Source: Carcharhinus longimanus
Lineage: Eukaryota
Direction of reading: 5' to 3'
Assembly: GCA_030264375.1 (NCBI GenBank)
Contig: JASCQW010000190.1
Coordinates: forward strand, 35,696,279 to 35,760,278
Length of the DNA stretch: 64,000 nucleotides
Shown: piece after piece, positions 3,983 through 37,729 of the stretch
Layout of the letters: every line of letters starts with the position of its first letter
Position numbering within the stretch: the first letter of the stretch is position 1
Program-made: the position numbers and the translations under genes
The notes under the pieces: generated by a model
What the model was told of the DNA's origin: nothing
What the model saw: only the letters and a program-made list of their open reading frames with translations
The model's database searches: none

Positions 3983-5424
3983 GGGGGCGATTCTCCCAGC
4001 CTGCTGCCGTGAGCCATCAATGGGGGCTGTTTCACGGACTTCCCACTGGGAGCCATGGTCTCTGTGTGCCTCTGCGATAATGTTTTTCGGTGTAATCAGA
4101 TCTGAAAATCAGCACGGAGCTGATTACAATTTGCTAATCGGTATATACATTTCATTAGCGAGTCTGGGACTGAAGTCTCTGGGCCCACTAGCATCTCCTC
4201 CTCTGCTGGGCGTGATTCACACTCTGTGCATCTCAAAATGCCCTAATGGGATTCCCTCTGCAAAGCAGGGGGCAGGGCCTGTTCCCGCCTGAGTGGCTGG
4301 AGCATCGTGTTGAGCAGACAACTGCACATGCGCTGATCTGTTAGCACATGTGCAGTACCAGTACCAGGACTGAGATTTACACAGGCTGGTGCTACCAGCA
4401 TCCCAATTGCTGGCCAATCCTCCATCACCCCCCAGCCCCTCTGAGCCGTGCCCCCCCCCCTCAATCGCTCGACCCTTGAACCTCCCCAGCCAGCTCCAAA
4501 TTCCCCAACCTGCTTCCACGCCCACTCCCCTCCTCCCCAACCCCCCCACCTGGAGTTTACAACAGCTTCCCACTAAAGGGGAACAGGTGGCCTGACCCTG
4601 CTGGAGGGAACAGAGGCTATCTAGGCCCCCCCAGAAGGTCAGGGGTAAGAAGGGGTGCCCCTGGGCAGTGCCAGTCTAGCAGTCCAGCCTGGTCGACTTG
4701 CACTGCCTGAGGGGCAAACTGGCAATGCCCAAGGGGTACTTTGGCACTGCCCATTGGGTAGTGGGCGGTGCCAAGGGAGCTGGGCCAGAAAGGGACAGGG
4801 CCTCTTCGGGGATGATCAGTGGGGTCCTGCTGTCATTCTGCATTGGGATCAGTGGCAGACGGAGGGAGGACAGCAATCATAGTTGGCCATCCAGGTGAGG
4901 GGAGGTGGGCGCAGCTGTCAGGGCATTGGGACTGTCGGGGGAAGTGGGGGTTGGCACTGTCAGGGGGAAGTGGGGATTGGGGGATCGGGAGATCGGAGCT
5001 AGCTGGGAGGGGGTGTTGGGGAGAGAGGGCAGGGTGAGTGGAGTGGATTGGGAACTTTGGAGCTGGCTGGGGAGGCCCAAGAGTCCAGCGATTGGAGGGG
5101 TCAGAGGAGCAGTAAAGGGGGAATTTTAGGGTTAGCCAGCGATTGGAAGGCTGGTAATACCAGCCTGTGTAAATCACAGTGCTGGTACTGCGCATATGCT
5201 GACAGGTTGGTGCATGTGTAGTTGCCTGCTCAGTGCTATGGTGCCGGCCACTCGGGCGGGAACAGACCCTGCCCCCTGCTTTGCAGAGGAAATCCCATTA
5301 GGGCATTTTGTAACACACAGAGCGTGAGAGATTCATTCTGAAAATCGCACTGAAAAAGTGATGTGATTATTCCCTTCTTCAAGCGAATTTGGGATTTAGA
5401 ATTTTTTTGGGAGAATTCTGGCCC
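3983..5424. mobile_element. Foldback/MITE-like non-autonomous element with long internal inverted repeats
   Basis: Termini GGGGGCGATTCTCCCA / TGGGAGAATTCTGGCCC; arms about 4217-4420 and 5129-5330 are reverse complements; C-rich then G-rich interior. Confidence 0.75.
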
Positions 5425-31430: not shown

Positions 31431-31858
31431 CTTCAGAGTTTTTGTAATGGTCAGAGGAAATTCCGCTAAACATCTTTGTAAAGTTATTGAACATGTCCTA
31501 AGCCCAACTAGCAAGGGGTTTAATTGATATGTGGTTGAGGGAAAGGAGGTGCATGGAAGAGAAAGGGAAGAAGTATTTATTCATGTTACTACAGCCATTG
31601 TGCTGATACCAGGATAGCTTGGAGAACTGGTCCTTTCCTACCCATTACATTGGTTTGATTGTAATTAAATTCCAACTCACAGTAAGGCACAATTAAGCCA
31701 CAGTGTGATTCAGGGAGTGTGAACATCTTCTAGTGCGATGCTAAGGGACATGGAAAGGATAGTTAAAAAAGCAAATCAGATTTTTTAGACTATCTTGGAA
31801 AGTTGTACAATCCAAAATGTGAGAGTCAGCATTATAAATATTGCAGCTGTCAACTTTG

Positions 31859-32158
31859 GGGGCGACCCAGTGGCACAGTGGTTAATGCTGCTGCCTCACA
31901 GTGCCAGGGACCTGGGTTCGACTCCTGGCTTGGGTCACTGTCTGTGTGGTGTTTGCACATTCTCCCCATGTCTTCATGGGTTTCCTCTGGGTGCTGTAGT
32001 TTTCTCTCACAGTCCAAAGATTTGCAGGTTAGGTGAATTGGCCATACTAAATTCTCCCGCAATGTAGCTGATCAGGCGCTGGAGTATGGTGACTAGGGGA
32101 TTTTCACAGCAACTTCATTGCAGTGGAAATGTAAGCTGATTTGTGACTGATAAATTAG
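31859..32158 (+). mobile_element. V-SINE, tail B, with CTTTG TSD
   Basis: Canonical head and tail; CTTTG at 31854-31858 and 32159-32163; empty site in the right arm. Confidence 0.93.
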
Positions 32159-32664
32159 CTTTGTTTTTTGTGTAGTGGTACGTCGGAACAAGAAAGGCCC
32201 TGGCCTATGATTAGCTACACTCACTTTAAGATTGCTGGTTTTTGGCATGAACTAATGTTCATTCTCTTGGGTAATCATATCTCTTGCTTTAATCAGTTTG
32301 ATTACCAATACACCTTACACAACACTTGCAAAGTTACAGCAATTGGCTCCTTGTCACTCATCATTAATTTAGAAGATGTAAGGAATATTGGAATCTGTTG
32401 TTTATCAAATATGGAATGATATGGGTTGTCAGACTGAGTCTAGGTGATAAAAGTAACATTGGCTATTAGAAACAAGGCATGCCTTTAGGAGTGCGACACC
32501 AAAAACCTGATTATTAAAGAAGCAGAATATTTTTATTCTTAATATTCCAATCTTTCTCAGCCAAACTGCACCAAGTAGACCAGCCCTGAACACTGAAAGA
32601 TGAAAGCATGTAAATATGTAAAATTCATAATTATTGCCAGCTTTTAAAATATGTGAAGAACATT

Positions 32665-32860
32665 ATAAAGTCACCAAAGCCCAAAGGACCTCCTTTGAGG
32701 GAGAGAGCTGTCAGATGATGATTTAACATGAGGATCACCACATCTGAGGTAAAGGGCAAGGTTGAACCTTCATGAGCAACTTCAGCCGGGAATTGAACCC
32801 ATGCTGTTGACATTGCTCTAAATCACTAACCAACTTTCTAGCCAATTGAGCTAAACTGAT
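32665..32860 (-). mobile_element. tRNA-derived SINE, third family (part of left arm)
   Basis: Reverse complement reads TTTAGCTCAATTGGCTAG..GGGTTCAATTCC (A/B boxes)..GTGGTGATCCTC. Confidence 0.75.
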
Positions 32861-32907
32861 CAATGAAAATGATCAAATTACTGTTGTTTTACAATCAAAC
32901 TGGTATC

Positions 32908-33218
32908 ATGGAATCATAGAATCCTACAGTGCAGAAAGAGGGCATTCAGCCCATTGTGTCTGCACTGACGACAATCCCACACAGGTCCTATCCCCATAAT
33001 CCCATGAATTTACCCTAACTAGTCCCCCTGACATTAAAGGGCACTTTAGAATGGCTAATCCACCTGACCCACACATCTTTGGACTGTGGGAGGAAACACA
33101 CGGANNNNNNNNNNGAGACATGGGGAGAATGTGTAAACTCCATACAGATAGTGACCCAAGCCCGGAATTGAACCTGGGTCCCTGGCACTGTGCTAACTAC
33201 AGTGTCACCGTGCCACCA
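32908..33218 (-). mobile_element. HE1/V-SINE, tail A
   Basis: Canonical; small N-gap inside. Confidence 0.92.
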
Positions 33219-34644
33219 ATGTGCAATATTCATTGGAATGAGATGGACGGACAGAGAAAAGAAAGTGCAGTGTTTAATTAAAACAGTGTTTAATATTTAG
33301 TATGCTCAAATTTAGGCACCTAACAATGGTAAACAATAATAATTATGTTACCTCCCACAATCTGTAGTGTGTAAATATGGAAAATTAATAAAATTAATCG
33401 ATTTATGGAACAAAATTACTCAACTGTTCAGTATAGTTTTCATGTTTACAAGGTTTTTAAAATAACACAAAATGTGGTCTTTTTAAAATTCGAATGCCTA
33501 TTAAGATGTTTGCATATCAACTGAACAGTTCTGGAACCATCATAACATTGGACATTACTTGCCATTCACATGCACAGAACACCTTAAATTTACATTGAGG
33601 TAGATGTATCTTCACTTGGCTGTGAGCTTTCCAAATCACCAGACACAAGTATGCACACACAGATTTGTTTTTCAAAAATATACTTTATTCATAAATAATC
33701 TGAAAAAAAATTACATAAACATTTCCGATCATTACAACAGTGAAATGTGATTATATTTGCCTCCCTGAGGTCAAAATGTATGCTGTGTTCGGTCTAAGAA
33801 CGTTACATATATTTCAATACAAAGTCCAAAGTTCTTTATGAAACTCTGTACATTGGTCATGTACGCAAACAGACATATACTATACATGCAGCATAGTTTA
33901 AAACTATTGTCATCACTGTACAGCTCATACAAGCCAATATGGGGGCACATCATGGCACAAGTGAGTGCCTGAACCTACCAGGTCTAGAGCCATCAAAAGT
34001 GGGCTTTTGCACCTTAGGGGACACATCTATGGCATTCCATCCACCAAAGGAGACCACACAGTGTGGTACAAGAGGGGTCAGGGTGTACCCTCTGGAAACG
34101 AAGCCAGAATGAGAATCGAGAGAGATATAAAGTGGGCTGCTGATTCACCATCACTCATTTCCCACATCACACAAGGTCAAAATCCACTCCTTATTCAGAC
34201 TTCAGATACTGGATCGATCACTGGCTAAAAACTGAAGAACAACAAGATGAAAAATAAATGGAGGGTGAAGTGAAGCAGCACTAACCAGGAGAGGAAATAA
34301 GAATCACTGCCTTATCTTGGACGGTGACCTGAATAGTCTCTACTGTTATAAGTTTAAAATGCCTATTATTTTCTGCACTACCATTTGTCACAGAAATAAC
34401 CCAGCCTACATACAAATTGATCATTGCTAATTGAGCATATATGTTCGGTCAAATCTTTATGCAGCAGAACATCTAATGGCATCTGCAAGTTTGAGCCAGA
34501 AAAAAATTGTGTGCTAAAAGTGTGAGTCATAAGGGAAAAATGCAATGTGGCACCTGGGTGAATACAGGAGGCAACACTGTTATCTTCTTAACTAAACAGA
34601 CCGAAGGGTTGTGAAATTAAAAATCTAAGGGCGGAAAAGGAGAT

Positions 34645-35013
34645 ATTGAATACCTACAGTGCAGAAGAAGGCCATTCAGCCCATCAAGTCTGCACTGATC
34701 ACAATCCCATCCAGGGCCTCTTGCTGTGACCTCCCTTATATTTACTCCGCTAAGGACTTTCTGATCGAGCATATTACCCCACACATTCACCATGGCTAGT
34801 CAATCCAATCTATACTTGGGAAACCAAGAGGCAATTGAACATGGTCAATTCACAGCCTACGCATCTTTGGAATGTGGGAGGAAACTGGAGCACCCGGAAG
34901 AAACCCATGCAGACACAGGGAGAATGTGCAAACTCTACACAGTCACCCAAGAATTGAACCCCGGTCCCTAGTGCTGTGAGGCAGCAGTGTTAACTGCTGT
35001 GCCATCGCGTCGC
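34645..35013 (-). mobile_element. HE1/V-SINE, tail A
   Basis: Canonical head and CR1-type tail. Confidence 0.88.
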
Positions 35014-35084
35014 TAGATTAGTGTGGGTTATTGCAATGTCCAATTAAGGTGCAGGAAGAATGATTAGTTTAGAGAGAAAAAAGG

Positions 35085-35245
35085 GCTTCCGTTTTTTGCA
35101 CTTTACACGACCACTGGATGTCTTAAAGTGCGTGACAGCCAATGAAGTAATTTTGAACTGTAGTCACTGTTGCAATGTAGGAAATGTGGTAGCCAATTTA
35201 TGTAGATCAAACTCTGAACAGCAATGTGATAATGACCAGATGATC
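35085..35245 (-). mobile_element. DeuSINE 3' fragment abutting the right arm
   Basis: CAGCCAATGAAGTA..GTAGTCACTGTTGCAATGTAGGAAA..GATAATGACCAGATGATC. Confidence 0.7.
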
Positions 35246-36261
35246 AGGTTTGCTCAGCAGGCTGGACAGCTGGTTAGTGTTGCAAAGTGATATCAATAGC
35301 ATGGGTTCAATTCCTGTATGGGCAGAGGTTGTTCATGAAGGCTTGAGCATGCCCTTGCCTGAGGTGTGGTGATCCTCAGGTTAAATCACCACCCGTCAGC
35401 TGTCCCTCTCAAAGGAGAAAGCAGCCGATGCTCATTTGGGGCTATGATGACTTTATTATGTCCTTCACATAAATATTTTAAAATCTGGCAGTAATTATGA
35501 ATCTCACATATTACGTGCTTTTATCTTTCAGTGTTTAGGGCTGGGCTACCTGATGCAATTTAATTGAGAAAGATTGGAGTATTAGGAACAGAAATATTCC
35601 GCTTCCTTAATAATTAGGAAGGCTGGAACATTCAGGTTTTTGGTGTCACGCTCCTAAAGGCATGCCTTCTTTCTAATAGCTGATGCTATTTTTATCAACT
35701 AGACTCGGTTTGACAACCCATATCATTCCATATTTGATAAACAACAGATTCCAATATTCCTTACATCTTTTAAATTAACGATGAGTGACAAGGAGCCAAT
35801 TGCTGTAACTCGCAAGTGTTGTGTAAGGTGTATTGGTAATCAAACTGATTAAAGCAAGTGATATGATTACCCAAGAGAATGAACATTAGTTCATGCCAAA
35901 AACCAGCAATCTTAAAGTGTGTGTAGCTAATCATAGGCCAGGACCCTTCTTGATCCTACGCATTGCTGCACTCAAAAAACAAAGTTGGCAACTGCAATAT
36001 TTATAACGCTGACTCTGTTGCATTTTGGATTGAATAGCTCTCCAAGATACTCTAAAAATCTGACTTGCATTCCAAAAAAATCTTTTCCATGTCCCTCAGC
36101 ACCGCACTAGAAGATGTTCACAGTCCCTGAATCACACTATGGCTTAATTGTGTCTTACTGTGAGTTGGAATTTAATTACGATCAAACCAATGTAATGGAT
36201 AGGAAAGGACCAGTTTTCCAATCAAGACACCACTATGGCTGGAGTATGATGAATAAAACTT
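35240..36261 (-). repeat. Right arm of long inverted duplication
   Basis: Colinear reverse complement of 31572-32862 without the V-SINE. Confidence 0.95.
35246..35455 (+). mobile_element. tRNA-derived SINE, third family (part of right arm)
   Basis: GGTTTGCTCAG..GGGTTCAATTCC..CCTGAGGTGTGGTGATCCTCAGG. Confidence 0.75.
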
Positions 36262-37729
36262 GACAGAATAAGACATCACCTTTGCCTGTAATCTCCCTTT
36301 ACTGTACAGGGCCCATGTGTTGCACTGTGTGATGTTTTTAAGATTGCCTCACAGCCTCAAATGTATGCATCTTAAAGGGAATGCTGCTTGTCCCTTTTTT
36401 TTGCTGTAAAAAATCTATGATTCTTTAAAAGATATGGGAGTGACAGTCTACGAATTGCTCTTAAAGAGCACTGGTGCTGACATGATGGACCAAATGGCCT
36501 CCTTCTGTGCTGTTACCATTCTACGTTTTTTTCCTCCACCACATATTGCCAATTGTTCTGTGGCAACATACTCAAACAGCTTTGAGAAAATTTTGTTTGT
36601 AACCGTTCATTTTCAGTGCCAGAGAGGTTGATTGGCAATAGTTCACAGGTATCACATTGTTAAACATGTACTCAGTCTAGAACGGATAACACTCAACTCT
36701 CTGTGGCAGGTTTAGTTCATGAATTCATTCTCCACAACTGTAGCAACTTCATGCTGTTCAATGCATTTCAATGACGGGCCATGCAGTGAGATCCATTTCC
36801 AAGATGCTAATGGCAGAATGGTACAGCTTGGATAGCAACTTTCTAAATATTTGAATTTACCCACACATTTGGCCATTGCCTGAAGTTGCTGTGCCATTGA
36901 CAAATAGTTAATGGTGAGCTCCATTAGCTTCACTGTTATTTTGACAGAAAATATGGGCCATTATTAAAAGAACACTGTCATCCTATTCACAATATTAGCT
37001 GAGTTGAATTTATAATACAAAGTAGTGGTAACTGAAAACATAACTGTTATTTGAATATTTCAACCCACGATTACAGGGAATGTTGAATAGAAAACAAACA
37101 CATAAAGGACTCCGTGATGTGTACAGTCAGTGTACCATTGAGTTCTGCACGGATATGCATTCCTCATCTCCAGTATTTATACAATTAATATTTTTATGAT
37201 GCAGCATACCAAGCTTGCTCTCATATTTCAAGCATTGGTGCTGCTTCAAATTTTGTACCCATTGCTGGTCTAACAGCAGTTTCTTTCTTCTCTACATTAT
37301 TTTAATTTTTTTCCATTCTCTTGCTTCTGAAGGAAAAAAGCTCGACATTCAAGTTGTTCTGTTAAAATGAGAACTGTGTCTCTTTTTCCCAGATATAATA
37401 CTGGGGCATCAAGAAGGAAGCTAGTGATGTTTGCTGTTTCTGTAAATGGTCCTTCAGCCCAGCTTCATTCATCCGTGCATAAAGTGTCTAAAGTTGACAG
37501 TGTGGAAATTGGCTTGAATTGGATCCAACTTTCAATGAAGAACTTATTCTGTGCTGGGGGAGCACTGCATGCCCAAATTGGTTAGGCTGCCCTGGAGCTG
37601 TCCAGCACAATTACCTGAAACCAGTGCTGGACACATTCGGTGTGCAAATTCAGGGCTAAGTGTCATTTTTAGACTCCATTTCTATGTTGGATTGCAATTG
37701 AAAGCTAATAGCCGTCCGAGCATTGTAAT

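Follow-up and report, generated by a model that had tools for sequence, protein, structure and literature searches.

Two inverted, slowly diverging copies of a putative enhancer between BRD7 and a naked-cuticle gene in a shark

Duplicated conserved non-coding elements (dCNEs), as described by McEwen et al. (2009, PMC2781166), are retained as two constrained non-coding copies in the regions of developmental genes. UCNEs, for which the criterion is 95% identity between human and chicken over 200 bp (PMC3436827), include a cluster of 60 around IRX3/5/6 and SALL1 with which BRD7 and NKD1 are also listed; by the rule of that paper, the listing of BRD7 places a UCNE within or adjacent to the gene. 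NKD1 is named among GRB regulators (PMC5585340), and a limb-enhancer candidate situated 31 kb upstream of the gene in birds (10.1101/181826) is possibly, at most, the same element as the one described below. Exchange between duplicates has been studied separately. Interlocus gene conversion leaves neutral rates unlowered (Fawcett and Innan 2011, PMC3924837), and in primate palindromes it lowers divergence only from 2.00 to 1.44% (PMC3723533). Like dCNEs, the locus described here contains two retained, apparently constrained non-coding copies in a developmental-gene region; like converting duplicates and palindrome P6, it contains close inverted copies.

Self-comparison by BLAST of the 64,000-nt stretch of Carcharhinus longimanus DNA analysed here (the window) gives two inverted pairs, 31571-31858/35980-36261 and 32159-32885/35217-35984, which global alignment joins into one continuous arm of ~1 kb, its left copy split by a 300-bp SINE. 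The two highly similar segments noticed in the first-pass annotation, termed here the core and block B, are parts of this same arm and not separate repeats, a point absent from that annotation. The left arm, on the plus strand, begins with an outer part (31571-31858, 83.8% identical to 35980-36261 over 291 BLAST columns) that contains block B (31619-31755, with three TAATTR sites) and is followed by the SINE (31859-32158, plus strand), the core (32201-32431, with TAATC/GATTA at 32209, 32272, 32290 and 32300), an inner flank (32432-32689) without 18 bp that are found at 35615-35632, and an old SINE-like repeat at the inner end (32690-32885, minus strand). A 2.3-kb spacer (32886-35216) of unique DNA and SINE copies (~32904-33219 and ~34645-35013) leads to the right arm, which opens with its own copy of the old repeat (35217-35431, plus strand, placed by alignment) and continues on the minus strand with the inner flank (35432-35710), the core (35711-35940), a middle part that holds the empty SINE site (35941-36084; empty site ~35980-35984), block B (36085-36222) and a decayed outer end (36223-36261). 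The left-arm SINE is bounded by a TSD (CTTTG at 31854-31858 and 32159-32163), belongs to a family with many copies within the window and recurs as loose contig ends in two of the organisms compared below (C and E); the alignment indicates that it is an insertion later than the duplication.

The copies are inverted, 2.3-4.7 kb apart and within one gene desert. BLAST-type searches of the 2.68-Gb genome returned at least two matches each for the core and block B, and only the two arms were found. No third or ancient paralogous copy emerged from the four other exact genomic 16-mer matches, all of which have unrelated flanks. A short near-perfect palindrome elsewhere (L045:1449-1515; G000:C27, ~14,249,280) carries the same TAATCAGTTTGATTAC word between two inverted SINE copies, its flanks being unrelated to the element. 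The inner repeats (32690-32885 and 35217-35431) are 75% identical to each other, compared with 74-86% to four unrelated copies in 664 kb; dating the duplication by this repeat was rejected, the two copies being no closer together than to unrelated family members. At least the ends of the repeats were probably co-duplicated, to judge from their junction with the unique flank, which the arms share. Two pre-existing inverted copies of the repeat may have seeded the duplication.

Neighbouring genes were sought in 600 kb of DNA flanking the window, and by the exon searches run the element is intergenic, in the order adenylate cyclase - BRD7 - element - naked cuticle. An adenylate cyclase exon is present in the flanking DNA. 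The top PDB matches of a bromodomain gene on the minus strand are to BRD7 (E 2e-25, vs 3e-20 for BRD9), and the element lies 40-45 kb upstream of its start. On the plus strand, 327 kb downstream of the element, starts a gene that we take from its motifs to be naked cuticle; it is the first match in the Atlas (0.95), with a recognition value under the tool threshold, and synteny, partly presumed, makes it likely NKD1 and not NKD2. No gene was found inside the window among 150 of its 213 ORFs of 70 or more codons (up to 50.4 kb) and a further candidate set. None of these gave a Pfam match above the curated cut-off, a screen that short exons could escape; weak sub-threshold matches of two of the 150 were disregarded. 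Rfam gave zero matches over the entire window, ARAGORN no tRNA in 32200-36500, and the window holds no CpG island. The element is non-coding within the ORFs and regions so scanned, and the gene order together with the listings in PMC3436827 and PMC5585340 places it within a genomic regulatory block.

Other local repeats occur in the same region. A direct duplication of ~700 bp (G000:C190:36017391-36018081 vs 36019378-36020075, L038-L039; 87.6%, 1.3 kb apart) lies ~40 kb upstream of the naked-cuticle gene, is two-copy within the 464 kb compared, and may represent a further duplicated element or the remains of a repeat. A direct repeat of 172 bp (G000:C190:36057535-36058054, L042; 89.5%) precedes the naked-cuticle start codon by ~1.3-1.8 kb, and the window itself holds a short inverted pair at 4217-4550 and 5006-5327 (76% over 340 columns, 456 bp apart).

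Divergence between the arms is not uniform along their length. The left core differs from the reverse complement of the right by five substitutions and one 1-base indel (97.4% over 231 columns) and block B by nine substitutions in 138 (94.2%), close to what the first-pass annotation had read from the letters. Its statement that adjacent parts are more diverged is also borne out: substitutions (indels extra) amount to 13.7% in the inner flank, 19.4% in the middle part, 22.4% in the inner repeat and 22.9% in the outer end, vs 2.2% in the core and 6.5% in block B. The most similar 229 columns of the arms hold 5 mismatches, a count that 20,000 permutations never matched (p=5e-5); the lowest minimum among them was 8, or 7 when the inner repeat was left out. 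Over 994 aligned columns the whole arms show 12.9% mismatches, unlike a palindrome maintained by conversion, whose arms are near-identical throughout.

Contigs of organisms C, E, F and I (four of the 23 runs listed) were compared with the right arm at 35430-36440. Left-arm letters of the other species were read from contigs matched to the right arm, and variable sites, 40 of 162 being listed, were mapped onto the left arm of the window; contigs of this kind may drop variants, a caveat for readings of collapse. Left-arm and right-arm contigs are both present in all four organisms, so the duplication is older than their splits. Organism E is the best resolved, its flanks assembling as a separate contig per arm. 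Its right-arm orthologue differs at 22 positions in the 290 bp of the inner flank (35432-35721) and at 43 in 569 bp outside, 7.6% in both cases; since divergence between the arms outside the blocks is 14-19%, the duplication would be about twice as old as the split of E from the window if rates are even. The E core differs by only two substitutions and one indel in 149 bp (1.3%), vs 65 differences in 859 bp of all flanks (Fisher, p=0.006 against the inner flank and p=0.002 against all flanks), a rate about six-fold lower than that of the flanks between species; corrected for a scan of any 149-bp window with at most two of the 67 differences of E, p=0.06. All three core differences match the left-arm letter of the window. 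Comparing copies gives a core/flank ratio of 0.14-0.16 and comparing species one of 0.18; because these values are alike, one level of constraint explains both comparisons and selection suffices for the core.

The flanks of E cluster by arm in the comparison of arm-wise with species-wise grouping that the first-pass annotation had proposed. Fourteen listed arm-specific substitutions, the 18-bp deletion of the left inner flank (seen in one E contig) and the SINE are shared arm by arm, indicating that the flanks of E and the window have not been homogenised since the split. By this count 14 of the 40 listed sites group by arm and two by species, the latter (35879 and 35967, a CpG) being the only ones at which the two E arms share one letter and the two window arms another; at 17 sites both E arms carry the left letter of the window. 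Signs of exchange appear in F, in I and at 35879.

Core constraint varies among the other comparisons. Between species the core is slower than neutral in E. In organism I the listed differences number four within the 230-bp core and 25 beyond it, and p ranges from 0.0009 to 0.20 depending on the placement of five others. No such slowing appears on the short C-window branch, where at least 3 changes fall within the 230 bp of the right core and 5-12 within 473 bp of flank, with no depletion in the core (p 0.41-0.72). One of these changes abolishes an ATTA word. The core changes on the C-window branch may be noise or polymorphism, or constraint on one copy may have relaxed recently.

These comparisons are best explained by an old inverted duplication of a likely homeodomain-bound enhancer, in which purifying selection on both copies is probably the main cause of the 97% identity of the cores. 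An old local event doubled a non-coding module with two slow blocks, a putative developmental enhancer bound by homeodomain factors and with NKD1 as its predicted target. The low rate of the core would then reflect selection on DNA binding sites in both copies. Near-identical cores 3.3 kb apart might in turn provide a substrate for occasional ectopic recombination, with conversion tracts or crossovers reaching the arms of individual lineages from time to time. The first-pass annotation had set purifying selection (a CNE or required RNA pairing) against local gene conversion; the slow core and arm-wise flanks favour selection as the main cause, sporadic exchange is retained beside it, and RNA pairing is not. 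Selection and conversion are not mutually exclusive, since the contigs show sporadic exchange between arms too.

The motif content of the core fits homeodomain binding in part. The richness in TAAT/ATTA claimed at first does not extend to plain TAAT (7 vs 4.1 in shuffles, p=0.11), whereas TAATC is over-represented (4 vs 0.67; p=0.005 before any correction for the 8 motifs and 4 segments examined). The inverted pair TAATCA-GTT-TGATTA is present as described, at 32290-32304 (no strand assigned) with its mirror at 35837-35851, and no listed difference between arms or species falls within it; likewise, no listed variant hits the four TAATC sites. We take the pair to be a candidate homeodomain double site and the TAATC and TAATTR words of the two blocks to be probable sites for homeodomain factors. 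SOX, TCF, PBX and MEIS-like motifs, sought by presumed consensus, show no enrichment.

A bolder version of the enhancer reading, unlikely as it stands, would make the element an ultraconserved enhancer shared across vertebrates that serves the NKD1/SALL1 block, is single-copy in bony vertebrates and was doubled in situ in a shark ancestor, both copies staying near-invariant although fully redundant and their identity seeding recurrent conversion and inversion of the spacer. If true, it would offer a natural experiment on ultraconservation in which an adjacent spare copy did not relax constraint. A pattern scan of metagenomes for host DNA of other vertebrates found homologous flanks in 0 of 52 matches, the scan itself being uninformative; the best match had 30 of 80 flanking positions in agreement (mean 19.6), and all were taken as chance. 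A human UCNE at the matching place could be listed in the coordinate supplement of PMC3436827.

The main competitor to selection on an enhancer dispenses with function altogether, attributing the likeness of the cores to repeated conversion between the inverted arms with a bias towards the ancestral base, and is unlikely although several contigs bear signs of exchange. Both window arms and the C contig have A at site 35879 (32262 in the left arm), where F, I and the two E arms have G; the probability of parallel mutation here is 0.02-0.16. In F, one of two contigs carries right-arm letters at 35553/35564 and left-arm letters at 35589/35591, and its partner the reverse. Because 35564 and 35589 fall in one 31-mer, the swapped phase is probably real, and on these letters it suggests that a single lineage underwent a crossover or conversion. 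The phase swap at 35553-35591 may also indicate that the 2.3-kb spacer was inverted in the F lineage. F further yields one 85-nt contig whose depth is doubled, across a stretch with nine differences between the window arms (P=1e-5 to 3e-3), and I yields one 610-nt contig into whose inner end both arms feed, the window arms sharing 0 of 218 31-mers over 35463-35710. At all 11 arm-specific sites the I contig carries the left-arm letter, yet it has neither the deletion nor the SINE; it may result from merged assembly paths, from conversion over a long tract, or from a slow lineage that branched early. Depth-based arm identity in C, F and I is too noisy to give more than hints. Such assemblers may merge near-identical paths, and the collapse in F and I is therefore weak evidence. 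Taken together, these contigs suggest that occasional exchange between the arms has probably occurred.

As the sole cause of the conserved core, conversion fares less well. Over 35722-35870 E gives a single 150-nt contig in which the arms are identical (depth 28.6 = 15.1 + 13.4), an identity that conversion would yield as well; within the same 149 bp, however, zero positions separate E from both window arms, where conversion alone predicts ~11 (Poisson P(0)=1e-5). A bias towards the ancestral state is documented (PMC3723533), but at ~1.4-fold and not the six-fold difference seen here. The presence of two separate conserved blocks and the arm-wise flanks of E and the window are likewise at odds with conversion alone.

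It is quite improbable that the core is a conserved non-coding exon, a promoter, a segment of a lncRNA or a mutational cold spot instead of an enhancer. Conservation alone names no function, and UCNEs include splicing regulators and ncRNAs (PMC3436827), but the ~230-bp core is 65% AT with two CpG, and the absence of a CpG island from the window and of Rfam and tRNA matches from the scanned regions also speaks against these identities. Less probable still, to the point of being a marginal case, is that both arms belong to one RNA in which pairing is required, as a long dsRNA or a substrate for editing or small RNAs. The inverted orientation and a 3.3-kb loop permit a 230-bp duplex, which should leave compensatory double changes specific to species; the check for these returned no more than a single joint change within the core (35879), and what is conserved is sequence and not complementarity. 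Single-arm folds of the core on both strands are not more stable than those of shuffled sequences (z -0.14 and -0.84), and the window scans revealed no exon and no Rfam match. It is extremely improbable that an assembly artefact produced the 1-kb inverted arms flanking a spacer, or that these are the terminal inverted repeats of a DNA transposon or foldback element, given only two copies found in 2.68 Gb (lower bounds), no dispersed copies, no TSD seen at the outer ends, 13% divergence between the arms, and the presence of both arms in four other organisms.

If selection on both copies of an enhancer is the right reading, a conserved enhancer was duplicated beside itself and both copies stayed constrained, which bears on redundancy vs selection in non-coding DNA. 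Core/flank ratios taken from copies and from species, set side by side, also offer a way to tell selection from conversion. This is one locus, with a putative enhancer in a known kind of region, and its general impact is modest. In the literature covered, which lies outside subscription journals, nothing was found that describes this element or any CNE duplicated locally in inverted orientation in sharks.

Among described systems, the UCNEs of the IRX3/5/6-SALL1-NKD1-BRD7 cluster (PMC3436827, PMC5585340) share with the element an orthologous neighbourhood, a length of 230 bp, AT-richness and an intergenic position; those UCNEs are defined by human-chicken identity, whereas the element is known from shark comparisons. 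Palindrome P6 and converting duplicates (PMC3924837, PMC3723533) provide further points in common, in that selection for similarity favours conversion, TE insertions and indels end it, and rare inversions swap phase. The arms of P6 on the Y, however, are >99.9% alike throughout, with a 1.4-fold drop in divergence, whereas homogeneity here is confined to two slow blocks. The dCNEs of McEwen et al. (PMC2781166) adjoin paralogous genes, and many stem from early vertebrate genome duplications; here the duplication is local and inverted, with 97% identity, and both copies occupy one intergenic interval in which no third was found. On the sequence evidence, the element is a real feature that acts like a duplicated CNE in an unusual, local and inverted arrangement.
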